A DNA stretch of 64,000 bases from Terriglobia bacterium. GTDB lineage: Bacteria; Acidobacteriota; Terriglobia; Versatilivoradales; Versatilivoraceae. Made by a program: the position numbers and the translations under genes. Positions 4,243 to 58,042 of the stretch are shown in pieces (the first letter of the stretch is position 1; every line of letters starts with the position of its first letter). Where the stretch lies: contig OY762429.1 in the NCBI GenBank assembly GCA_963665655.1, forward strand, positions 112,492 to 176,491. Direction: 5' to 3'. Below the pieces are notes generated by a model, which was not told where the DNA came from, searched no databases, and was given only the letters and a program-made list of their open reading frames with translations.

Positions 4243-5445
4243 ATGACCGACCGACTCTACTATTCGGACAGCTACCTGACCGAGTTCGAAGCCCAGGTTG
4301 TTCAGGGGGAACAGGCAGGGAAGTTGTTTGAAGTGAGGCTGGATCGAACGGCCTTCTATCCCACCTCCGGCGGCCAGCCCCACGATCTGGGGTCCATCGC
4401 GGGACATCCTGTCGTCGAAGTGGATGATGGACCCGATGGGACCATCATCCATCGACTGGAGCACCGGCTCCCCCCGGACAGGGTCCGGTGCCGGATCCAT
4501 TGGCCCAGGCGATTCGACCACATGCAGCAGCACACGGGCCAGCATATCCTTTCGCAGTCCTTTATCCGAGTCGCTTCACTCGCCACCGTCGGCTTTCATC
4601 TCGGTACGGGATACTCCACCATTGATCTCGAAGCCGCCGAGGTCGACCTGGATGCTTGGCGCGCGGCCGAAAGTCTGGCCAACTCGATCGTCTACCAGAA
4701 CCGGAGCGTCACCCCGCGGCTGGTGCCTCCGGATGAGGCTGCCGGACTCCACTTGCGAAAGCCAAGCCGGCGGGAAGGAATCCTGAGAGTGGTCACCATC
4801 GAGGACTTCGATGTTTCAGCCTGCGGCGGCACCCATGTGAGGCAAACCGGGGAAATCGGTGGGATATTCATCAATCGGGTTGAGCGGGTGAACCGCCGGA
4901 CTCGCATTGAATTCGTTTGCGGAGTGCGTTCACTCCACTCCTATCGCCGCCGCTCTGAAGGCCTGGGTCGAATCGCCAAGGGACTCTCGGTTGCCCCTCA
5001 GGATGCCCCCGATCGAGTGGAAAGGCAGACACAGGAAATGAAAGCCCTGCGCAAGCGCTTGAAGGCAAAAGACGAATGCCTGGCAGGGCTGCTGGCCCAA
5101 GACCTTTTCGACCAGGCGCCCTCCACCCAGGGCGTCCGAATCGTGAAGCATCAATTTGAAGGAGAGGAGAGCGGCTTCCTCACCCTGTTGGCCCAACGCC
5201 TTCTGGCCTGCGGTCCTTGCTGGGTGGTGCTCGGCAACGGAGGAGAGCACGCGCAACTCCTCCTGGCCCGGAGCGAGTCTCTCGCCGGCGACCTTCGCCC
5301 GGTGATGAAAGAGTGCAGCCTCATGGTATCGGGAAGGGGAGGGGGCTCGCCTGCCCTGGTTCAGGGCGGCGGGAGCGACCCCGGTCAACTCCGCAACGCC
5401 CTGGATTGCGCGGCGCAGCGAGTCCTGGCTCTGGTGAATGGTTGA
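4243..5445 (+). CDS. AlaX-like alanyl-tRNA editing protein (tRNA_SAD domain)
   Basis: HxxxH (HMQQHTGQH) and CxxxH (CGGTHV) zinc motifs of the AlaRS/ThrRS editing domain. ATG at 4243. Confidence 0.75.
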   Translation: MTDRLYYSDSYLTEFEAQVVQGEQAGKLFEVRLDRTAFYPTSGGQPHDLGSIAGHPVVEVDDGPDGTIIHRLEHRLPPDRVRCRIHWPRRFDHMQQHTGQHILSQSFIRVASLATVGFHLGTGYSTIDLEAAEVDLDAWRAAESLANSIVYQNRSVTPRLVPPDEAAGLHLRKPSRREGILRVVTIEDFDVSACGGTHVRQTGEIGGIFINRVERVNRRTRIEFVCGVRSLHSYRRRSEGLGRIAKGLSVAPQDAPDRVERQTQEMKALRKRLKAKDECLAGLLAQDLFDQAPSTQGVRIVKHQFEGEESGFLTLLAQRLLACGPCWVVLGNGGEHAQLLLARSESLAGDLRPVMKECSLMVSGRGGGSPALVQGGGSDPGQLRNALDCAAQRVLALVNG

Positions 5446-8490: not shown

Positions 8491-11400
8491 TTGCTTCCGG
8501 TGAGCACGCACATCAGAAGACACTATTGCGCCTTGCTCCTTCTGCTCGCCGCGATCCTGCCGGCAGCCTCTGCCCAGGATTCCCCGGCCGAGGGGAGCGC
8601 CTCGCCGCTTTTCCATGTCTCCTTCGAGAGGAGAGTACTGGCCGACCAGGCTGAGGGAGACGCCGCTCCCCTGGGCAACCGGGGAGTGAGCATTGCCAGG
8701 CGCGGCCGGCAGGGAAGAGCCCTTTTTCTGGATTGGGGAGCCCTGCTCAGCTTTGCCGCAGCCGGCAACGTCTACCCCGAACAGGGAACGCTGTCCTTTT
8801 GGTGGCAACTGGACGAGCCCCCCGGCAAGACTCCCTTTTCCATCATTCGAATCAGCACCCGGCAGCTTCATTCCCCCCAACACCTCTTCGCTCACCTCTT
8901 CTGGACAGGCCGGACCCTGGCATTGCGGCTCTACGACCGGGACTCCCAAGTCCTGGAGACGGATGCCGGAATCGATTCCGGCGTCGTTGCCGGTCGCTGG
9001 ATCTTTTTGGCCTTTACCTGGCATGAGCTGGAAGGACTGCGCTTTTACATGGACGGCCGGGAAGTCGGCAACCGCCTCGGGCAATTTCATTTTGGCAGGT
9101 GGCTGGACCAGATCGGCATTCACACCCAGGCGCTGACCCCCTATTACCGGAAGAGCAACGAGAGACGGGCCTATGTGGACGAATTCCGGATTTTTGCGGA
9201 AGCCTTGAGTCCCCCAGCGATTGCAAACCTGTCCGAGCTCGGCGCCGGTCGTGCCGGCCGGCACCCTTCGGCAAAGAAGGTCGACGAGGAATTGCGTTCC
9301 GGCCACTGGGCCGACCGTTTCGGGTGGAACAATCCGGAGGCCACCCTGGCGCTGGCCGCCCCGATCTCCATTCGCCCGGTAAGAATCGTGTCCGCCCGGG
9401 ACGTCAAGCGGGCCTCGCCGGCAGCCGCGGATGGTTTCTCCGAGAGCTCGTGGCCCCCGGCGATGAAGGGATACCCACAAGAGGGAAGGACCCTGCGGCT
9501 CGAGGTCCCGCGGGAGGCCTTCAACCGCCTTAGCCTGCGGGGCAATCTGAAAGGGAAGATCCATGGAAGCGACGGAAGCCGGCGGCGGTTGCTTTGGGAC
9601 CTTGCTTCGGAAAGGGCGAGTGAGACCGCCAAACCTCTGAACGGACCCTTGTCCATGTCCCGGATCGAAGTGGAAAGAGAGTCCGGGCAGCTTCGAGAAC
9701 TCTCGCTGCTGTCGACCCGGGACGCCCCTGAGAACGGGACCGAAAGCGCCGAAAGCGGATGGCTGACCCTTCGACTGCTGCCCGTGGAACTGGCGGCCAG
9801 CCTTCCGGGCCAATCCGCCCGCCAGGTCAGATCCTTCTTCGGGCGGCGAACCGATCTGCGTACGGCCTATCTTTCCCGGGATCGGGAGGCCTGGGTGGCT
9901 GTCCCCGAAGAAAGCTATCAGGCGCCGTCCGCCCCGCTGCAAACACCCGCCACCCAAGGCTTTCGACACATTTTTCTGCCCCCCTTCCTGAGCCACACGG
10001 TTGTGAAGGCCATCCGTATCCGTCTGGACGGGGCCGGGCAGGACACCTCGGTGGAGTCCAGGGTGCGATGGACGGTCAAGGACCCCATCCTTCCCCAGCG
10101 GGATGTGGTTTCCCTGGATTTCCGATGGTCGGGGGAAGAGTCGGCCGAAATGGAGCTCGATCTCGGCGATTGCTTTCTCCCCGCCGGACAGCCCCTCTGG
10201 ATGACCGTTGCCAGTGACCGAATCGACTTTGCCCGAAAGCATTTCGAGAATGCGGAGATCGAGATGCGCACCGTGACAGAGTGGCGACTGCCCGGCAAGC
10301 AAGCCCAGCCTGCCGACCTGTTTGCCGACCGCACCCTGTTGATCCGCCAGGGCCTGCGCAAGCTGACCCGACGATTGGACTGGATGTCCATGGACCTTGC
10401 CTCGGCCCGCCGGAATTTCAGCAGCGTTGACGAGACCTTCCGGTTGGTGGAAGGGTTGTTGCAATCCCGACCCAGGGATCCAATGGGACTATCCTTCAAG
10501 GGACTGCTCCAGCCCGATTCGATCCCTCCCGAATATCGGGAGAAACCTCCCTCGGCCCCCGCATTCCCCCAATGGGCCGTCCAACAGAAGCGGCTGGTGG
10601 ACCACTTCCGGCACATTGCCCACTGGTGGATAGAAAACCGGCAACTCCAGAGCGGCGCCTTCGGGGGCGGACTTCGGGGCGACACCCGGCTGGCTGCCCA
10701 CTGGCCGGGGATAGCACTCATGGATGGTCCGGCTCCCCGGCTCAAGCAATCCCTGGTCTCCCTGATCGAAGCCCGTTTGCGCGACGGGACTCTGGAAATG
10801 GGTTTGAACCGCCAGGTCCGGCCCGTCCGACAGGCCTATCAGGCCGGCCTGAACCTGGCTCCGATGCTGGCCCTGCTGGATTACGGCAACCCCCGCTGGA
10901 TCGAAACGCTGATGGAGACCTCCCGTCACCTGGATCGCCTCACCGCCGCCAACCCTGCGGGTCACCGCCACTTTCAATCCTCGCGGGTCAGCGCTACGGA
11001 ATCGGTCCGGCAGGGAATCTTCGCCCGGGAAGAGGCCTGGAGCTCTCTCCTGTGGCACTCGGCCCTCACGCTGGCCGATTACAATCGCAACCCAACGCTG
11101 GTGGATCAGTTGAAGGAGTATGCCGCGGCCCGGCTGGAGCACTGGAAGAAGGACCGCTATCCGAAACTGACCCTGGCCATCCATTTTCCTACCGACGAGG
11201 CCCTGAGCCGAGGACTGCCCGGTCGTCCTTTGTTGGACCTGATGTGGGGAGTCTTCCGGGTGACCGGCAACCCGGCATACCTGTGGACCTTGAGCACACT
11301 GGTGAAGGCCGGCCATACGGAGGCCGCCCAGACAAGCTCGGCGCGCTGGCAATCGTTCTTGCCGGAGGCTGCCGAGGTCCGTCCCTTTCTGAAGCTGCTC

Positions 11401-12492: not shown

Positions 12493-12874
12493 GAGCCTTT
12501 GGCAAAATTCCGCAGACAAGGGTATTGTGGATCGGGAGAGGGGACACGGAGTGATAGGGGCAGGTTGGCTCTGTGCCTGAATGGCCACAAAAGGCACAAA
12601 AGCTGGAATCGCCAAGTCTCAAATCTCATTCAGGAATCAGGATTTCCAGAACGCGGTTCTCCGTCGAAAGGCCACAAAAGGCACAAAAACGGGATTGGGC
12701 AAGACTGGGGCCTGATTTTGTGCCTTTTGTGCTTTTTGTGGTTGAGCCGTTCACCCCATTCACTTGGCAGCGGCAGCCTTCCCAGGAGAAGCCAGGGGAG
12801 AGGTGACTCGCGGGGCAAGTCCGCTCTTCTGTTGTTTTACGGAGATGCTCGATTCCGAATTTTGCAAAAGGCTC
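12493..12874 (+). repeat. Family A MITE-like element (copy A1), ~380 bp, 18-nt terminal inverted repeats GAGCCTTTGGCAAAATTC / GAATTTTGCAAAAGGCTC
   Basis: Carries four GGCCACAAAAGGCACAAAA-type boxes in both orientations. Full copy at 57394-57769 (inverted), internal fragment at 28396-28500. No transposase ORF. Confidence 0.7.
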
Positions 12875-20261: not shown

Positions 20262-20885
20262 ATGGACAAACGGGTCAGCGGCATCATCCTGGCCGCGGGC
20301 AGATCGCAGCGCATGGGGCGGCCCAAGGCCTTGCTGCCCATCTTCGGCGCCACCTTCCTGGAACATATCGTCTGCCAGATTCGGGCCTCCCGGCTGGTCG
20401 AGGTGAAGATCGTGCTGGGTCACCGGCCGGAAACCATTCTGGAACGTCTGCCGGACCTGAAGCCGGCTACCGTCATCAACTCCCGCTACCGGGAAGGACA
20501 ACTCTCCTCTCTGCAAACCGGCATCCGGGCTCTCGATCCCGAAACCTGCGACGGCTTGATGCTCTTCCTGGTCGACCATCCCCTGGTCGACCCCACCCTG
20601 ATCGACGCGCTGCTGGAATGCTTCAGCCAGGGAGGCCATCCCATCGTGATTCCTTCCTTTCAGAGGAAGCGAGGACATCCGGTCCTGTTCGCCAGGGAAC
20701 TGTTTCCCGAGCTGCTTGCCGCCAGTCCGGACGAAGGGGCCGTTGCCGTGGTCAGGCAGCATCGCCGGGAGATCCGCCACCTGGAATGGCCATCGGATGA
20801 GATCCTTGTCGACGTAGACACCCCGGAAGCCTACCAACGCTGGATCCAGCCGCGCACGACGGGTGTTCCGTCCCGGCAACGCTGA
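20262..20885 (+). CDS. MobA/MocA-like molybdenum-cofactor nucleotidyltransferase
   Basis: GIILAAGRSQRMGRPKALLP motif. Overlaps the pheA stop, so probably co-transcribed. Confidence 0.7.
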   Translation: MDKRVSGIILAAGRSQRMGRPKALLPIFGATFLEHIVCQIRASRLVEVKIVLGHRPETILERLPDLKPATVINSRYREGQLSSLQTGIRALDPETCDGLMLFLVDHPLVDPTLIDALLECFSQGGHPIVIPSFQRKRGHPVLFARELFPELLAASPDEGAVAVVRQHRREIRHLEWPSDEILVDVDTPEAYQRWIQPRTTGVPSRQR

Positions 20886-20887
20886 AG

Positions 20888-20968
20888 ATTCCAAACAAAG
20901 CACTGCAAGATGTTAAAGACCAACACTTTTCTACCCTATGCTCAGCGGCCCGGTGAGAAATGCGGGTC
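20888..20968 (+). repeat. Family C repeat (core GGTGAGAAATGCGGG with ~60-nt conserved 5' part), copy C1
   Basis: ~85% identical to 57957-58042. Core recurs at 48268-48300(rc), 50886-50912(rc), 57797-57822(rc), 59275-59305 and degenerate at 29025-29043. Confidence 0.55.
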
Positions 20969-24126: not shown

Positions 24127-25317
24127 CTACGCCGGGATGATCCCCAGCCGGCGGCCGACTCTGGCGAGAGCCTCCAGGGCGAACTCCAGTTGTTTCCGGG
24201 TATGGGCGGAGGTCACGATGGTGCGAATGCGAGACTTCTCCTCCGGCACGGTGGGATACCCGATGCCTTGAGCGAACACACCCTCCTCGAAAAGCCGGTC
24301 CGAAAACGTCATGGCCAGCTCTCCCTGGCCGACGATAATGGGGGTGATGGGCGTTTCGCTGGCGCCGGTGTCGAAACCCAGGCGAGCCAAGCCCGCCTTG
24401 AAGAAACGGGTGTTGTCCCACAAGCGTTCGATCAGGGCCGGCTCCTCTTCCAGGACCTCGAAGGCCGCCAGGCAGGAGGCCGCCACCGCCGGAGGATGGG
24501 AGGTGGAAAAAAGAAAGGGCCGGGCGCGATGGTACAGATATTCAATCAGCGCGCGACTCCCGCAGACATACCCGCCCAGAGATCCCACGGCTTTGGAAAG
24601 CGTGCCCACCTGAATGTCCACCCGGCCGTGCAACCCGAAGTGGTCCACCGTGCCGCGACCGCAATGGCCCATGACCCCGCTGGCGTGCGCATCGTCCACC
24701 ATCATCATGGCGCCGTACTGTTCCGCCAATTCCACGATTTGCGGAAGCGGGGCCACGTCGCCATCCATTGAGAACACGCCGTCGGTGACCACCAGTTTCC
24801 TGCCGGGCAGCGACTGAACCTCGGCCAGAATGTCTTCCAATGCCCGGGTATCCTTGTGGGGAAAAACTCGGATCTGCGCGCGCGACAGCCGGCAGCCGTC
24901 GATGATGCTGGCATGGTTGAGCTCGTCCGAGATGATCAGGTCTCCCTTGCCCAGGATCGAAGATACCGTGCCGGCGTTGGCGGTGAACCCCGATTGAAAG
25001 ACCACGCTGGCCTCCACCTGCTTGAACCGGGCAATCTTTTCCTCCAGCTCCATGTGAACCCGCATGGTTCCCGCGATGGTTCTGACCGCGCCCGACCCCA
25101 CACCGAACCGCCGCAGGGCCCGAGCGGAGGCTTCCATGAGCCGGGGGTGGGTGTTCAGTCCCAGGTAGTTATTGGAGGAAAGGTTCACCACCGACCGTCC
25201 ATCGAATTGAGCCTGTGGCAGTTGTTGTCCTTCCAGAATCTTGAGAGCCCGGTACAGCTTCCTGCGTTTCAGACTCTCCAGTTCTCCAGCCAGAAAGTCA
25301 TCCAGAAGGGTTGCCAT
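24127..25317 (-). CDS. kbl: 2-amino-3-ketobutyrate CoA ligase (glycine C-acetyltransferase)
   Basis: Alpha-oxoamine synthase family (NNYLGL, DDAHASG, GTLSKA PLP-lysine). ATG at 25317 (MATLLDD). Confidence 0.85.
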   Translation of the reverse strand: MATLLDDFLAGELESLKRRKLYRALKILEGQQLPQAQFDGRSVVNLSSNNYLGLNTHPRLMEASARALRRFGVGSGAVRTIAGTMRVHMELEEKIARFKQVEASVVFQSGFTANAGTVSSILGKGDLIISDELNHASIIDGCRLSRAQIRVFPHKDTRALEDILAEVQSLPGRKLVVTDGVFSMDGDVAPLPQIVELAEQYGAMMMVDDAHASGVMGHCGRGTVDHFGLHGRVDIQVGTLSKAVGSLGGYVCGSRALIEYLYHRARPFLFSTSHPPAVAASCLAAFEVLEEEPALIERLWDNTRFFKAGLARLGFDTGASETPITPIIVGQGELAMTFSDRLFEEGVFAQGIGYPTVPEEKSRIRTIVTSAHTRKQLEFALEALARVGRRLGIIPA

Positions 25318-25481
25318 GATGCGTTTTCCACTTCGACGGGAGATTCTCTTCGACCCCGAAGGCAATGCCGCCCGCGGGGCCGCGTGGAGCAGAGTCCACG
25401 ATCTTCAGAGAATCATAACACAGGGAAGCGAGCCCGCTTCCCGTGCCGCAGCGGCTGAAACAACAACAGAAAAGAGGAATC

Positions 25482-25498
25482 CACGAAGTCACACGAAG
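25482..25498 (-). promoter_or_regulatory. Two phased direct repeats CACGAAG (10-bp period); reverse complement matches the 17750 motif
   Basis: CACGAAGtcaCACGAAG. Its reverse complement CTTCGTGtgaCTTCGTG is near-identical to CTTCGTGtgtCTTCGTG at 17749. ~170 nt upstream of kbl. Confidence 0.35.
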
Positions 25499-25730
25499 GA
25501 CCAGAAAGGCCACCAAGGGGGACGGCTCTGCCGCATCGGCACAGGCTGAGGCCTGGCAACCGGGCGTGCGCCGGATCGAGGGGCAAGAGTGATGGAAGGA
25601 GGACCACCCGGGAGCGCGGGCGTCCCGCCCGCCCCAGTCCGGGCGCAGCCCGGGCCGACCGAGACAACCCCGCATGGAGCGGGACACGGCCAAGTGCTGC
25701 CGCCGCTTCGCGGCTCGGGGGGTGCACCCA

Positions 25731-25802
25731 GGGGACGTTGTTGAATTCCTGGAATTCAGAAACCGCTGATCCAATTTATTCCAGTAGTTCAACAACGTCC
25801 CC
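25731..25802 (+). repeat. Palindromic element E1 (GGGGACGTTGTTGAATTCCTGGAAT ... ATTCCAGTAGTTCAACAACGTCCCC)
   Basis: ~24-nt inverted arms around a 22-nt spacer. A second copy (27780-27822) in the same orientation bounds the far side of the low-GC cassette. Confidence 0.7.
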
Positions 25803-26109
25803 TACTCTTCCTCCCACCTGCCAAACTGGTACAGTCCCTGGAATCGGGCGCATGTTGTCGTGCGAAAGCAATCCTCGCTATCATGAATCGACCGTCCGAG
25901 TCGGGGGACTTGGTGATGTCGAGGATGCTTTTGCCCTGGAGGTCCATGTCGAAGATGCGTTGGACCATTGCTCGGCAGGCGGGTCGAGCCCCAGCTTGGG
26001 GCGCTTCTTCGCCCCGCTCTGGACATGGACCCGCTTGTATCCGTAGGGAGCGTAGGCCGACATCCAGAAGCCGCGGGAAGCAATCTACGGAGTCGACAGC
26101 CTTGCCATA

Positions 26110-26298
26110 GTGAACCCGGAGCTACTGGTGGAATGGGACGCGCTAACGCCGCCGGCGCGGCGAGAGCTGAACGCGGCGGTGTTCGACGCCATCGGCCTGA
26201 CCGTCGACGAGCGCGAGGCGGTGTACGCAGGAGTGACGAAGTTGATGGAGAATCGGCGGCCGCGCATAAGGGCAAGCAAGGAGGCAGAAAGATGTTAA
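26110..26298 (+). pseudogene. Remnant 3' end of a DNA methyltransferase-like gene (62 codons)
   Basis: C-terminal block LNAAVFDAIGLTVDEREAVYAGV resembles the ...V.DLYGLT.EE...V motif that ends many N6-adenine MTases (type I HsdM / type IIG / PglX). Upstream region is high-GC but has no long ORF. Its stop overlaps the downstream start (ATGTTAA). Confidence 0.3.
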
Positions 26299-27617
26299 TT
26301 GCCGCACTGCGAGAAGCCCTCGAACACACGACAATTACAGCAGAAGAAAGGATGGAACCTGCGGAAGCAAAGGTCCTACGAAGACAACTAGGAATGGGCA
26401 CAGACCTGACACCAGCAAACTATCGTCGCATATTGGATCTTGAGGAATACCTACCAAATTTCTCAGTCGACATCATTGCGTGGTACAGAATAAACACGCA
26501 GGAGCCGCAAATGGCAAAACTGTCGTCCGAGATCGCCAAACTCCTTGGGATCAAGGAAGGACAGCATATTTTCTCGTGCACATGCGTGCTAATGGGTGGG
26601 CAACCCGCAATAGACGCCACGCACGTAGCAGAAAAAATGATACTGGCAGCCATCAAGTTTGGACCGGAAAAGGCGGAAGCTCTCCTCAACTCAAGAATGT
26701 CAGACCAAACCGTTTCGGTTAATCATTTGCTTCTGGCAGAAGGAGTTACGGTAGCGGAAGAACTCAAAATCGGAAACGACATAAAGATTGTCCCCATCAG
26801 CGAGAAAAACAAGTACATTCTGCCGTTCGACATCCGACATCAATACATCAACCGCCATCGATTTGTTCCGTTCCATAGCAATCTCGAACAATCGGCCATC
26901 ATCATCACTGAGCATTCTCTGACGCCTGCGTTCAAAGTAGTGGAAGAAGGCTACGAAGAAAGCGAGCCGTGGCCTATGGGTGTAATACACACAATCGAAG
27001 AAGATGACGTGAACGCTCCAGAAAGGGCAACGACATCCATTTTGTCGCTTGTCATCAACTCACCCGTGATCGCTATGCGGTCATGGATTTACACCGACCC
27101 TTACGAACCTTTCCGCATAGACAGGGGAAGCCGCGCAGCGGCAAGTTTCCTAGGTGGAAGGCGTGCATATCAATCAGTACAAGCTGGCTTGGATGACCTT
27201 GCGAAATTCCAAGAAATACGAGAAAAACTGCTGTCTGAACCGAACATAGAGAAGAAGCTGAAAACCCCTATCAGATACTGGGTCAAATCCAGAATGGCAG
27301 GCCCTAGCGTTGACGGGGCGATCTACCTCGGCATAGCAATGGAGACCCTTTTCCTCGACAATTCCAGGACGGAGCTGTCATATCGCATGCAAGTTAGAGC
27401 CGCCAAGCTAATAGGCGGGAACATGTCGCAACGCGAGCTAACGAAGAAGCTAGTGAAGAACACATACTCGGTTCGCTCCAGAGCGGCGCATGAAGGCGCA
27501 ATGAAAACCGAGGATCAAGAAGCTATAGAGAAGGGACAAGGTCTGATACGCGATGCTATTCTGAAAATAATCGAGTCGGGTACATACCCCGACTGGAACC
27601 GCTTGGATCTGGAGTGA
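26292..27617 (+). CDS. Uncharacterised 441-aa protein with C-terminal HEPN-like R-x4-H motif; candidate abortive-infection/defence protein (AIPR/Abi-like context)
   Basis: AAGGAGG SD 7 nt before ATG 26292. GC ~48% versus ~65% in flanks. RSRAAHEG motif at 27472-27495 in a predicted all-helical C-terminal region. No Walker A, no PD-(D/E)xK recognised. Confidence 0.7.
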   Translation: MLIAALREALEHTTITAEERMEPAEAKVLRRQLGMGTDLTPANYRRILDLEEYLPNFSVDIIAWYRINTQEPQMAKLSSEIAKLLGIKEGQHIFSCTCVLMGGQPAIDATHVAEKMILAAIKFGPEKAEALLNSRMSDQTVSVNHLLLAEGVTVAEELKIGNDIKIVPISEKNKYILPFDIRHQYINRHRFVPFHSNLEQSAIIITEHSLTPAFKVVEEGYEESEPWPMGVIHTIEEDDVNAPERATTSILSLVINSPVIAMRSWIYTDPYEPFRIDRGSRAAASFLGGRRAYQSVQAGLDDLAKFQEIREKLLSEPNIEKKLKTPIRYWVKSRMAGPSVDGAIYLGIAMETLFLDNSRTELSYRMQVRAAKLIGGNMSQRELTKKLVKNTYSVRSRAAHEGAMKTEDQEAIEKGQGLIRDAILKIIESGTYPDWNRLDLE

Positions 27618-27779
27618 ACTATCCATGACCATCCTCCATACCTACAGCGACCTCAAGTTCACCAAACGCCTGCGCCACGTCCTGGTCTAGGCCCACGGCG
27701 CCCCTCACGGGCCTTACGGCAAGCCTGTCGGGACTGAGCGGAAACACCAACTACACCTACAAGGCGTATTCGGACACCA

Positions 27780-27822
27780 GGGGACGTTGTTGAATTACTG
27801 GAATAACTTGTGCAACGTCCCC
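27780..27822 (+). repeat. Palindromic element E2 (shorter copy of E1)
   Basis: GGGGACGTTGTTGAATTACTGGAATAACTTGTGCAACGTCCCC. First 26 nt nearly identical to E1. Confidence 0.6.
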
Positions 27823-28238
27823 ATTTCCAGTCAGTCAGAAAATCCTATCCTCTGGCAGCGTCGTGATTTCAGGGAGAGCGGCGTAGCCGCGCCAGCACTT
27901 GGCCCCGGGCGTAAGCCCGGGGTCGTATGGGTCCTGCACTGCCCTAGCCGCGTAGGCGGCTACTCGAGAGCCGGGTCTCCAAAACACACGGCCTCCCCAA
28001 AAACCATCGGTTCCCCGGCACCGTTGCCGTTCGATCCAAGTGATGGAGATGGTCAGGCTGTGCCGGTCTATGGTGCGGGCGGGACGCCCGCGCTCCCGGG
28101 TGGCTTCATCCCATGACCGGGCCACGCCAAGGGGACGAAATTGCAGGAGCATTCCGGGGCCGGCTTTTGTTGACGGAGTGTTGGGCATAGCGGGCGTAGG
28201 AGACGGGGCAGATCAATCGAGAAGGACCAACAACTGAA

Positions 28239-28379
28239 CATCGATGCACAGGATAACCAGGACGGGACGCTCCTGCACGAGAAGTTGACTTCGGCGATGA
28301 TCCGGTTCGGGATTGCGGATGCCCAGGAACAGAGGCCAGTCGTTTCCAGAAAAAATCCTGTGCATCCTGTGCATCGATG
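28239..28379 (+). repeat. Family B palindromic MITE-like element, copy B1 (TIR CATCGATGCACAGGAT)
   Basis: Starts CATCGATGCACAGGATAACCAGGACGGGACGCT..., ends ...ATCCTGTGCATCCTGTGCATCGATG. ~85% identical to 50956-51105. Confidence 0.65.
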
Positions 28380-28395
28380 TGAATAAAAATCGAAA

Positions 28396-28500
28396 AGGCC
28401 ACAAGAGGCACAAGAACGGGATTGGACAAGACTGGAGCCTTTTTTGTGCTTTTTGTGCCTTTTGTGGTTGAGTCGTTTGCCCATTCTCCAGGCAGCAGGA
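28396..28500 (+). repeat. Family A MITE, internal fragment (copy A2) abutting B1
   Basis: GGCCACAAGAGGCACAAGAACGGGATTGG...TTTTGTGCTTTTTGTGCCTTTTGTGGTTGAG matches the middle of 12493-12874. Confidence 0.5.
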
Positions 28501-28582
28501 GCTTCCCCAGCCGTTTTCCCTCGAATGATCCGCACGACGGGGCGCGATTCCGGCCAGCCGGCGTCCCTGGGCGAAAGGCGGG

Positions 28583-28939
28583 CTACAGTCCCAGCAGGCG
28601 CGTCAACCAGGCGAAAAACACTCCGGCCGGAACCAGGGTCCCCACTGCGACCACACAAGCCAAAACGGAACTACCCGTTCTTTTCAGGGTCAGAAACGCC
28701 AGCAGCAGTTGGCAGGCGGCGATTCCCAGGGTGGCCACCGTGCCCGCCACGGCGCCATGGGCGCACCAGGGACAATCGGGAGGTCCGGGGCGATGGATAT
28801 CGCAGTGAGCGGCGGCTCCGTCCCAAAGCCAGGTGCAGCCGCACCCGAAGGCCATGCCGCAGAAAGGAATCAGCAGAAGGCCCAGACTGGCCAGGACGGT
28901 CAAGACGACCATCCATTGCGCTCTGTTGAAAGACCTCAT
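28583..28939 (-). CDS. Small cysteine-rich integral membrane protein (DUF2752-like?)
   Basis: Three predicted TM helices and a CGCTW...HCD...CPWCAHG cysteine cluster. Family assignment tentative. Confidence 0.45.
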   Translation of the reverse strand: MRSFNRAQWMVVLTVLASLGLLLIPFCGMAFGCGCTWLWDGAAAHCDIHRPGPPDCPWCAHGAVAGTVATLGIAACQLLLAFLTLKRTGSSVLACVVAVGTLVPAGVFFAWLTRLLGL

Positions 28940-57393: not shown

Positions 57394-57769
57394 GAGCCTT
57401 TTGCAAAATTCGGAATCGAGCATCTCCATAAAACAACAGAAGAGCGGACTTGCCTCGCGAGTCACCTCTCCCCCGGCTCCTCCTGGGAAGGCTGCCAGGT
57501 GAATGGGGTGAACGGCTCAACCACAAAAAGCACAAAAGGCACAAAATCAGGCCCCAGTCTTACCCAATCCCGTTTTTGTGCCTCTTGTGGCCGTTCGAAG
57601 GAGAACCGCGTTCTGGAAATCCTGATTCCTGAATGAGATTGGAGACCTGGCGATTCCAGCTATTGTGCCTCTTGTGGCCACTCAGGCACAGAGCGGCCCT
57701 GCCCCTGGAATTTCCTGTCCCCTCTCCCGATCCACTAAACCCTTGTCTGCGGAATTTTGCAAAAGGCTC
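57394..57769 (-). repeat. Family A MITE (copy A3, inverted relative to A1), TIR GAGCCTTTTGCAAAATTC
   Basis: ~90% identical to the reverse complement of 12493-12874, including the internal GGCCACAAAAGGCACAAAA boxes. Confidence 0.7.
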
Positions 57770-57956
57770 GGGGGATTGGTCCGAAACGTTTCCCGCCAGC
57801 CCGCATTTCTCACCAGGGGGCGTGATCATGGCGCGGGAATTTTCCCCTCAGCGCGTGCTCGGGAGCGAAGAGCGTCGCGGTCACTACGGTCGAGCGAGCA
57901 TGGATGGGCTGAGGGGAAAAGGACAAGCCAGGGCACGCCCAGCACGGTCTGTACGC

Positions 57957-58042
57957 TGAAGACTCCAAACAAAGCGCTGCAAGATGTTAAAGACAAACAC
58001 TTTTCTACCATAGGCTCAGCGGCCTGGTGAGAAATGCGGGCT
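57957..58042 (+). repeat. Family C repeat, copy C2
   Basis: CCAAACAAAGCGCTGCAAGATGTTAAAGACAAACACTTTTCTACCATAGGCTCAGCGGCCTGGTGAGAAATGCGGGCT. ~85% identical to 20888-20968. Confidence 0.55.

Follow-up and report, generated by a model that had tools for sequence, protein, structure and literature searches.

A foreign gene core in a mosaic of dispersed repeats between kbl and a membrane-protein gene of a Terriglobia bacterium

Introduction

In the genome of a Terriglobia bacterium (assembly GCA_963665655.1, contig OY762429.1; Acidobacteriota, Versatilivoraceae), a segment of about 2 kb lies between two copies of a palindromic repeat and carries an intact gene for a 441-residue protein with a C-terminal HEPN domain. 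The analysis covered a window of 64,000 nucleotides (nt), contig positions 112,492 to 176,491 of the forward strand, and coordinates given without a locus name refer to that window. An earlier reading of this DNA (the original prediction) described the segment as a defence-type cargo, horizontally acquired and partly decayed, that had been inserted via its flanking repeats. In the intergenic spacer that holds the segment, at least four repeat families form a nested mosaic around a foreign core of about 2 kb, and the locus as a whole is a strain-specific islet of junk and cargo in a hypervariable spacer of a 'Ca. Versatilivorator'/Terriglobia-group acidobacterium.

The spacer and its orthologues

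The spacer is bordered on the left by kbl (24127-25317, minus strand) and on the right by a gene for a 118-residue membrane protein (28583-28939, minus strand). Orthologous loci were reached through kbl homologues of 90-93% identity, and the gene order groES-groEL-118-residue membrane protein gene-kbl-aminotransferase-M28 peptidase is kept in them (L120-L124). The spacer between the two border genes is 79 nt long in L120 and L121 (L120 coordinates 9922-10000), 78 nt in L122 (9923-10000), 904 nt in L123 (9097-10000), 1407 nt in L124 (8594-10000), and 3,265 nt in the window (25318-28582). Repeats are absent from the spacers of L120, L121 and L122. Those of L123 and L124 are filled by A-type and ACATCGATGCACAGGAT-type repeats, with no hairpin of the GGGGACGTTGTTGAATTNCTGGAAT family to which the palindromes of the window belong and no cargo. 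In the window, the strain-specific expansion takes up 25426-28582 and is made of nested dispersed repeats and the foreign core. All of the spacer insertions lie immediately behind the stop codon of the 118-residue gene, and from one close relative to the next the spacer lengthens stepwise as repeat families accrete.

A blastn comparison of the window with all fetched loci (about 120) separates repeats from core. Matches to dispersed repeats were found at 25470-25656, 25718-25824, 27875-28001, 28017-28162 and 28202-28391. From 25825 to 27875, the sole matches were to two metagenomic homologues of the 441-residue gene (L001 and L004, over 26266-27707).

The palindromes and their repeat family

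The left palindrome (25730-25811) is a hairpin doublet, 72 nt long, formed by the GGGGACGTTGTTGAATTNCTGGAAT repeat, of the REPIN or terminal inverted repeat (TIR) dimer type, together with a conserved TACTCTTCC flank. Its arms (25730-25755 and 25778-25803) are 26 nt long and 92% complementary with a 22-nt loop, and it shows 79-86% identity to 10 fetched loci. The right palindrome (27779-27822) is a truncated copy of the left repeat, an assignment based in part on alignment to the single-hairpin composite of L073. It matches the left arm at 27 of 28 nt in direct orientation, which confirms the two like-oriented copies of the original prediction. What is left of it is the full 31-nt left arm and 10-12 nt from the end of the right arm, with a 10-bp outer stem remaining. 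Exact matches to GGGGACGTTGTTGAA in the window number three, all at the two palindromes; with up to three mismatches there are eight, against 1.9 expected, a count reached in none of 100 shuffles. Three repeat pairs are nested at the locus, with the palindromes as the inner pair and the outer two pairs inverted.

No target-site duplication is present outside the palindrome pair (...CACCCA before the left copy, ATTTCC... after the right one), and a second copy of the palindrome-core-palindrome unit was found neither in the window nor in about 120 related loci. A composite transposon flanked by miniature inverted-repeat transposable elements (MITEs) was rejected on these two grounds. MITE-flanked mobilisation units, of which integron mobilisation units are an example, do resemble the locus in that a passenger segment lies between two copies of a miniature repeat. 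The locus differs from them in its unduplicated flanks (CA... / ...AT), its truncated right copy and the lack of a second unit in the loci searched.

The palindromes have many relatives. A scan of one genome per species with the query GGGGACGTTGTTGAANNNCTGG, in which all counts are lower bounds, gave at least 183 arm matches in at least 115 stretches. The arm matches listed are mostly intergenic and come almost all from metagenome-assembled genomes of 'Ca. Versatilivorator'/Versatilivoraceae, Terriglobia and other Acidobacteria. The arms pair most often as the canonical 116-nt doublet (24 cases among the matches listed) or as a 72-nt hairpin like that of the window, and elements of 85, 169, 211 and 293 nt end in the same arms as the 116-nt doublet. 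Tandem hairpins of the same orientation, 100-640 nt apart and without cargo, are common (L016, L018, L028, L046, L111 and L119). The palindromes of the window are ordinary members of this dispersed acidobacterial repeat family and not sites specific to a cassette.

Some half of the arms listed stand alone, with no second arm within 135 nt, and many of these are the ends of units of about 1.35 kb (for example, L038 2724-4078 and L112 4834-6174) that are bounded by inverted single arms. The single open reading frame (ORF) of such a unit encodes an IS200-like transposase (Y1_Tnp, PF01797; 30.3 bits, cut-off 23) with a C-terminal helix-turn-helix. Homologues of this Y1 transposase were found in 10 repeat-bearing loci, and it is multi-copy, occurring in several loci of the same genome (e.g., L011, L066 and L112 with two each). 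Copies lie at L038 3089-4054 and L112 4957-5823, and in L083, L045, L011, L066, L013, L110, L009 and L080; they share 80-94% amino acid identity with one another, and several look truncated. The TA that flanks full-length units had pointed to MITEs of the IS630/Tc1 kind, a reading that was rejected since the units code for a Y1 transposase and the TA simply belongs to the inverted repeat.

Because the same arms flank IS200-like Y1 transposase units in relatives, the family is of the REPIN/RAYT type ('TIRtron/TIRYT'), and it is presumably mobilised in trans. Among the matches listed, GTA stands before 29 of 183 arms (16%) to give GTAG, with ATA before 44 and GCT before 28. With these other triplets as common as GTA or nearly so, the family fits the 'TIR' class and not the GTAG-REP class.

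REPIN/RAYT systems were described by Bertels & Rainey (2011, PMC3116915). TIRtrons and TIRYTs, together with TIR repeat families, have been reported from acidobacteria, where the transposases form a sharply defined group and the TIRYT-associated TIRs share a GGGGWSAS motif (Di Nocera et al. 2013, PMC3733652). The family in the window resembles these systems in its high-copy intergenic palindromic doublets that form hairpins, in the presence of the same arms beside an IS200-like Y1/HUH transposase gene, and in the clustering of repeats in mosaic regions. Its arm begins with GGGGAC, which is near the TIRYT motif. There are also differences. Classical RAYTs are single-copy, whereas the transposase here is multi-copy in relatives; classical REP sequences carry the GTAG tag that is found here on so few arms; and the arms, at about 28 nt, are not strongly palindromic themselves.

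With a Y1 transposase as the cognate enzyme of the repeats, the bracketed segment might be seen as a cassette that such an enzyme moves in trans. The direct hairpins would then be the subterminal ends of a non-autonomous transposon of the IS200/IS605 type that had captured a defence gene. In elements of the IS200/IS605 type each end carries a hairpin, both of them on one strand, an arrangement that the two direct palindromes match, and the set of non-coding elements from 85 to 293 nt indicates that the arms tolerate varied inserts. The probability of this explanation is nevertheless very small. The transposase units of the family are bounded by single inverted arms and not by two direct hairpins, and much of the right hairpin at the locus is missing. 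The cargo is made up of assorted gene scraps, which fits decay better than capture, the unit has no second copy in the DNA compared, and close homologues of the gene are mobile in the absence of these repeats.

The length of the left palindrome raises one further comparison. An imperfect palindrome of attC-like length that bounds a promoter-less ORF could be taken for part of an integron-like gene cassette, with the palindromes as attC sites. This can be set aside with near certainty: the arms, with GTTGTTG on the 5' and CAACAAC on the 3' side, are the reverse of the attC order R'' (RYYYAAC) ... R' (GTTRRRY). Moreover, the repeats are spread over the whole genome among housekeeping genes and form no array of one orientation, the associated enzyme is a Y1 transposase and not IntI, for which no dedicated scan of the window was made, and the locus, set between kbl and groEL, has an empty orthologous counterpart.

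The foreign core

Gene scraps surround a single intact gene in the core. That gene (26292-27617, plus strand) encodes the 441-residue protein, which has an N-terminal alpha/beta region and the HEPN domain at about residues 300-441. Its ATG at 26292 overlaps the stop codon of a 62-codon ORF (ATGTTAA), and a Shine-Dalgarno sequence, AAGGAGG, lies 7 nt upstream at 26278-26284; both the overlap and the AAGGAGG were in the original prediction. The gene has 49.3% GC and a third-position GC (GC3) of 0.54, compared with 62-63% GC and GC3 of 0.73-0.81 in six neighbouring genes. A GC/GC3 profile bore out the claim that the segment is compositionally unlike its surroundings.

The DNA unit that the metagenomic loci have in common spans 26266-27707 (plus strand), with 83-88% identity by blastn to L001, L004 and L143. 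It is composed of the 441-residue gene, about 26 nt upstream with the ribosome-binding site, and up to 90 nt downstream, so that it ends at 27625 or 27707. Since the shared DNA is limited to these bounds, the mobile unit is the gene with its ribosome-binding site. The ratio of nonsynonymous to synonymous substitution rates (dN/dS) among three close homologues is 0.31-0.35, a sign of purifying selection, which means that the gene is functional or was so recently.

Upstream of the gene, the DNA from 25812 to 26291 has 62% GC. A frameshifted minus-strand scrap at 25852-26075 resembles the 'Recombinase' domain of a large serine integrase and is cut at both ends; with one frameshift assumed it reads ...YAPYGYKRVHVQSGAKKRPKLGLDPPAEQ / MVQRIFDMDLQGKSILDI.... 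A tblastn search matched it to 19 phage records (E 0.02-0.9, 35-38% identity over about 60 amino acids), and almost all of the best-matching phage records listed are annotated as serine integrase or integrase. Three plasmid matches are annotated 'recombinase family protein'. Pfam gave no match to the scrap, the Recombinase domain PF07508 included. On this weak but convergent similarity, 25852-26075 would be a pseudogene scrap of a large serine integrase. The scrap and the two outer inverted repeat pairs had been missed by the original prediction.

The 62-codon ORF (26110-26298, plus strand; a 56-residue hypothetical protein in the public annotation) had been likened to the C-terminus of a methyltransferase. 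Its end, PARRELNAAVFDAIGLTVDEREAVYAGV..., aligns to PDRRELDRVIFEALGLTEEEQLEVYRAV..., the C-terminal end of a 988-residue, TaqI/PglX-like DNA methyltransferase of a Thermococcus plasmid, with 42% identity over the last 48 residues and ends within one residue of each other. The likeness thus stands as a congruent match that runs to the very end of the enzyme, but its E value is 0.1 and the other searches gave nothing: there was no match in Pfam or NCBIfam, and a word search of 5.8 billion proteins returned the ORF itself alone. The catalytic motif (D/N)PP(Y/F) and the AdoMet-binding motif FxGxG of methyltransferases are absent from a six-frame translation of 25804-26300, and about 60 C-terminal codons remain. 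The ORF, with a GC3 of 0.78, is unlike the 441-residue gene downstream. It is probably, on weak support, the 3' end of a gene for an N6-adenine DNA methyltransferase. Two further candidates were tried. The gene 3' of the Thermococcus methyltransferase was rejected as a related partner (hhalign probability 0.3%), and the C-terminus of type III Mod showed no resemblance to the 62-residue ORF. The overlap of stop and start codons is conserved, which suggests that the 441-residue gene once followed another gene.

Downstream of the gene, a GC-rich, 'FN3-like' scrap (27708-27778, plus strand) contains the predicted peptide PTAPLTGLTASLSGLSGNTNYTYKAYSD in one frame just before the right palindrome. 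These 30 or so residues have a single Pfam match, to Pur_ac_phosph_N with E = 0.095, and no match among the fetched loci. Horizontal acquisition followed by partial decay, as first proposed, is supported by the absence of the core from orthologous loci, its deviant GC and GC3, and the fragments around one intact gene.

The 441-residue protein and its family

A word-indexed search found only three relatives of the 441-residue protein. An exhaustive HMMER profile search found 5,656 cluster representatives at E <= 1e-3, 176 of them at E <= 1e-30. The protein and 95 family members have no meaningful match in Pfam, PADLOC, NCBIfam or the sequences of the PDB, profile search included; one member of the P0004 cluster is named 'HEPN domain-containing protein' by NCBI. 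An AlphaFold2 model built from a 95-sequence alignment reached a pLDDT of 87.7 and a pTM of 0.86, where a 4-sequence alignment gave a pLDDT of 38. A Foldseek search of the model against BFVD returned no significant match.

In the predicted structure, the C-terminal domain has the four-helix up-and-down fold of HEPN proteins. The HEPN structures listed for it, with their scores, are 2hsb (9.7), the HEPN toxin 7ae2 (9.0), Csm6 (8.9), AbiA (8.2), the HEPN domain of sacsin (7.7) and AbiV (6.5). An Rx4H motif is present as R395-S-R-A-A-H400. Across the 95 sequences E351, Y392, S396 and H400 do not vary, and R395 is conserved in more than 90%; a conserved acidic residue in the first helix, another mark of HEPN domains, is thereby also present. 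The Rx4H signature defines catalytic HEPN RNases (PMC3710099), and the 441-residue protein is, on its modelled fold, a putative RNase of the abortive-infection or toxin type. No recognised relative was found for the N-terminal 300 or so residues. A weak match to Hammerhead_3 inside the gene (27034-27089, minus strand; E = 0.38 and 21 bits, where the gathering score is 48.5) was judged to be due to chance.

Family members occur in diverse settings. Close homologues of the gene (79-83% amino acid identity) are found at other loci, mostly beside tRNA genes, and no palindromes flank them there. Related genomes with the same content and no flanking palindromes had been named in advance as counter-evidence to insertion through the repeats, and for the 441-residue gene such loci exist. 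Solitary genes of the HEPN family lie 230-400 nt from a tRNA gene in L001 (9542-9616, Ala-TGC), L143 (3597-3672, Ala-GGC) and L145 (7531-7605, Gly-GCC). In these three unrelated genomes the tRNA-adjacent gene is lower in GC than its surroundings, which suggests that such genes are remnants of tRNA-targeting islands. Other neighbours of the family include tyrosine integrases and a large serine recombinase. One member lies beside a TOTE primase-helicase (L133), one in a relaxase-bearing element (L002), and the P0004 member in a context like that of a plasmid or an integrative and conjugative element. In L127/L128 (3869-11275), a distant member of 479 residues is encoded between the Mod (N6_N4_Mtase + TypeIII_RM_meth) and Res (ResIII) genes of a type III system. 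Two small ORFs are also present at that locus, and the member is embedded in the type III system much as PrrC is in its own.

At least 16 HEPN clades have been linked to restriction-modification (R-M) systems (Anantharaman et al. 2013, PMC3710099), with PrrC as the paradigm. The present gene resembles these in three respects: the C-terminal HEPN fold with Rx4H, the methyltransferase-like 3' end directly upstream with overlapping stop and start codons, and the distant family member between type III mod and res. It differs from PrrC in that the protein has no ABC-ATPase N-terminal domain, and from the PrrC module in that the window has no intact R-M operon and the methyltransferase-like remnant is some 60 codons of different codon composition. 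Unlike R-M-linked HEPN genes, most of its close homologues are solitary. A second comparison is with HEPN proteins that act in abortive infection as single genes, namely ApeA, AbiV and the C-terminal domain of AbiA. From these it is set apart by the absence of a sequence match to the PADLOC models of ApeA and Abi proteins and by a motif of the form R-S-x-A-x-H, not R-N-x3-H.

The modelled fold, the Rx4H motif and the type III relative together lend support to the defence-type cargo of the original prediction. The protein may act as a metal-independent endoribonuclease, in an abortive-infection or toxin module that would be either stand-alone or R-M-linked, with the N-terminal two-thirds perhaps serving as a sensor or regulator. 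An R-M methyltransferase may at first have been the partner of the gene, on the pattern of PrrC.

Outer repeats and the Acido-Lenti-1 motif

Several other repeat families surround the core. The outer A-type repeat has its left copy at 25470-25656, with a TIR-like core CCACCCGGGAGCGCGGGCGTCCCGCCCGC at 25604-25636 and matches to L031, L075 and L054. Its right copy (28017-28162, core at 28071-28103) is inverted relative to the left one and matches 10 loci. The two cores form an inverted repeat of 33 nt at 97% identity, and the left copy also has matches in the repeat filling of the L123 and L124 spacers. A second inverted pair, 25688-25716 and 27876-27904, nests outside the palindromes. Two further families occupy 28202-28491, a ACATCGATGCACAGGAT palindromic element at 28238-28380 and a CACAAAAGGCACAAAAG element at 28393-28491; they have copies elsewhere in the window and matches to L024, L047, L098 and L054. 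Reading the two flanks as one long inverted pair was rejected, as the blocks are separate repeat families in variable order.

One of these modules corresponds to a named RNA motif. The Acido-Lenti-1 RNA motif (RF01687) was described by Weinberg et al. (2010, PMC2864571). In the window it is found at 27877-27922 on the minus strand, with 46.3 bits against a gathering score of 37 and with its two-hairpin structure; a degenerate motif of the same kind at 25670-25715 on the plus strand (20 bits, E = 0.19) falls below that score and pairs, in inverted orientation, with 27876-27904. The right copy sits in the dispersed repeat 27875-28001, which matches L017, L039 and L073. In 18 hairpin-bearing loci there are nine matches above the gathering score, usually 50-350 nt from a hairpin. 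Copies are present in L073 (4099-4144, plus strand, and 4509-4554, minus strand), in L018 (5770-5815, 6408-6453 and 7615-7660), and in L017, L039, L046 and L111, some of them in tandem units. In L073, one hairpin lies between two inverted copies. In contrast to the Rfam description, the motif here belongs to a dispersed DNA repeat, found again and again next to the hairpin family and as inverted pairs, and this suggests that Acido-Lenti-1 is a module of mobile repeats rather than a stand-alone small RNA gene.

Tandem arrays occur in L119 (5071-6141), L018 (5770-7982) and L111 (2158-2708), with periods of about 335, 493 and 638/1207 nt. They are built of A-type repeat, hairpin and Acido-Lenti-1 modules, so the repeat families amplify as composite units. 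A far-reaching extension of the Y1 explanation would make the hairpins functional ends, with a TIRYT/RAYT-like Y1 enzyme mobilising cargo other than its own gene, a REPIN-like element having captured the HEPN defence gene, and Acido-Lenti-1/hairpin composites acting as preferred landing pads. Little probability is attached to it.

Arrival of the core

The L073 composite bears directly on how the core arrived. The outer flanks of the two hairpins in the window are colinear with the two flanks of its single hairpin, so that L073 looks like a paralogous 'empty site'. This could mean that the core recombined into the hairpin repeat itself and duplicated the hairpin on both sides, either by Campbell-type homologous recombination of a circle that carried one repeat or by a serine integrase that used the palindrome as attB. 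In its favour, two copies in direct orientation immediately bracket the foreign DNA, and the integrase scrap adjoins the left copy. On balance this course is nonetheless unlikely. L073 is paralogous, not orthologous, and the single-palindrome empty site that the original prediction led one to look for did not appear in orthologous loci: the 78-79 nt spacers of L120-L122 hold no repeat, and L123 and L124 lack the GGGGACGTTGTTGAATTNCTGGAAT family. The frequency of cargo-free tandem hairpins means that the two copies could have pre-existed. The integrase fragment is internal and is cut on its hairpin-facing side, which makes the junction secondary. In addition, the right copy is no simple half-site hybrid, no target duplication surrounds the pair, the unit has no second copy in the data, and homologous genes are found at other loci without such repeats.

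Passive lodging of the core in a recombination-prone repeat mosaic, followed by decay, is the probable explanation. A larger horizontally acquired element would have carried a serine integrase and a DNA methyltransferase, and the core would be its eroded remnant. The most likely course is that it came to rest between repeats that were already there, or inside them, and deletions may then have trimmed it to leave a single gene intact. The junctions seen today are not the original att sites, as the integrase scrap is truncated on either side. Insertion via the flanking repeats, as first proposed, is not sustained, since the palindromes belong to a genome-wide family tied to a Y1 transposase and the gene occurs elsewhere without them. 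The repeats are no dedicated site for cassette recombination.

Several observations weigh against this account of the locus. The colinearity with L073 is the pattern expected of repeat-mediated insertion, and passive lodging may understate the part played by the repeats. The Y1 transposase is absent from the window, its link to the repeats coming from related genomes. Both gene-scrap assignments have E values of 0.02-0.9 and are convergent and positionally congruent, yet weak. For the protein, catalysis and a role in defence are read from HEPN fold and motif, Foldseek found no significant match in the PDB, no PADLOC model matches the family, and the window holds no intact partner gene.

Repeats elsewhere in the window

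Other repeats of the window lie at a distance from the locus. Long inverted repeats at 12493-12874 and 57394-57769 (279 nt with 92% identity and 103 nt with 96%) are 44.5 kb apart and consist of repeats of the CACAAAAGGCACAAAAG and GAGCCTTTTGCAAAAGGCTC families. Such a pair could allow the 44 kb in between, the present locus included, to invert. An 88-nt direct repeat (20879-20966 and 57953-58040, 93% identity) overlies the M28 peptidase ORF at its predicted ATG (20910) and first codons. That gene may in truth start further downstream, or its 5' end may come from the repeat.

Implications

The repeats at this locus are of the known REPIN/TIRtron kind, and the gene is of the R-M-associated or stand-alone HEPN kind. 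What looked like a new system of cassette capture reduces to known processes, and the chief use of the result is in preventing over-interpretation. In the series of orthologous spacers (79, 904, 1407 and 3265 nt), the accretion of repeats in acidobacteria can be followed as a clean, natural time-course. For Acido-Lenti-1, a place among the modules of mosaic repeats would change the reading of the Rfam family. The 441-residue protein anchors a large family, with thousands of clusters at 50% identity, that is without a model in Pfam, NCBIfam or PADLOC. This family is a reasonable candidate for a new single-gene module of the abortive-infection or toxin type.

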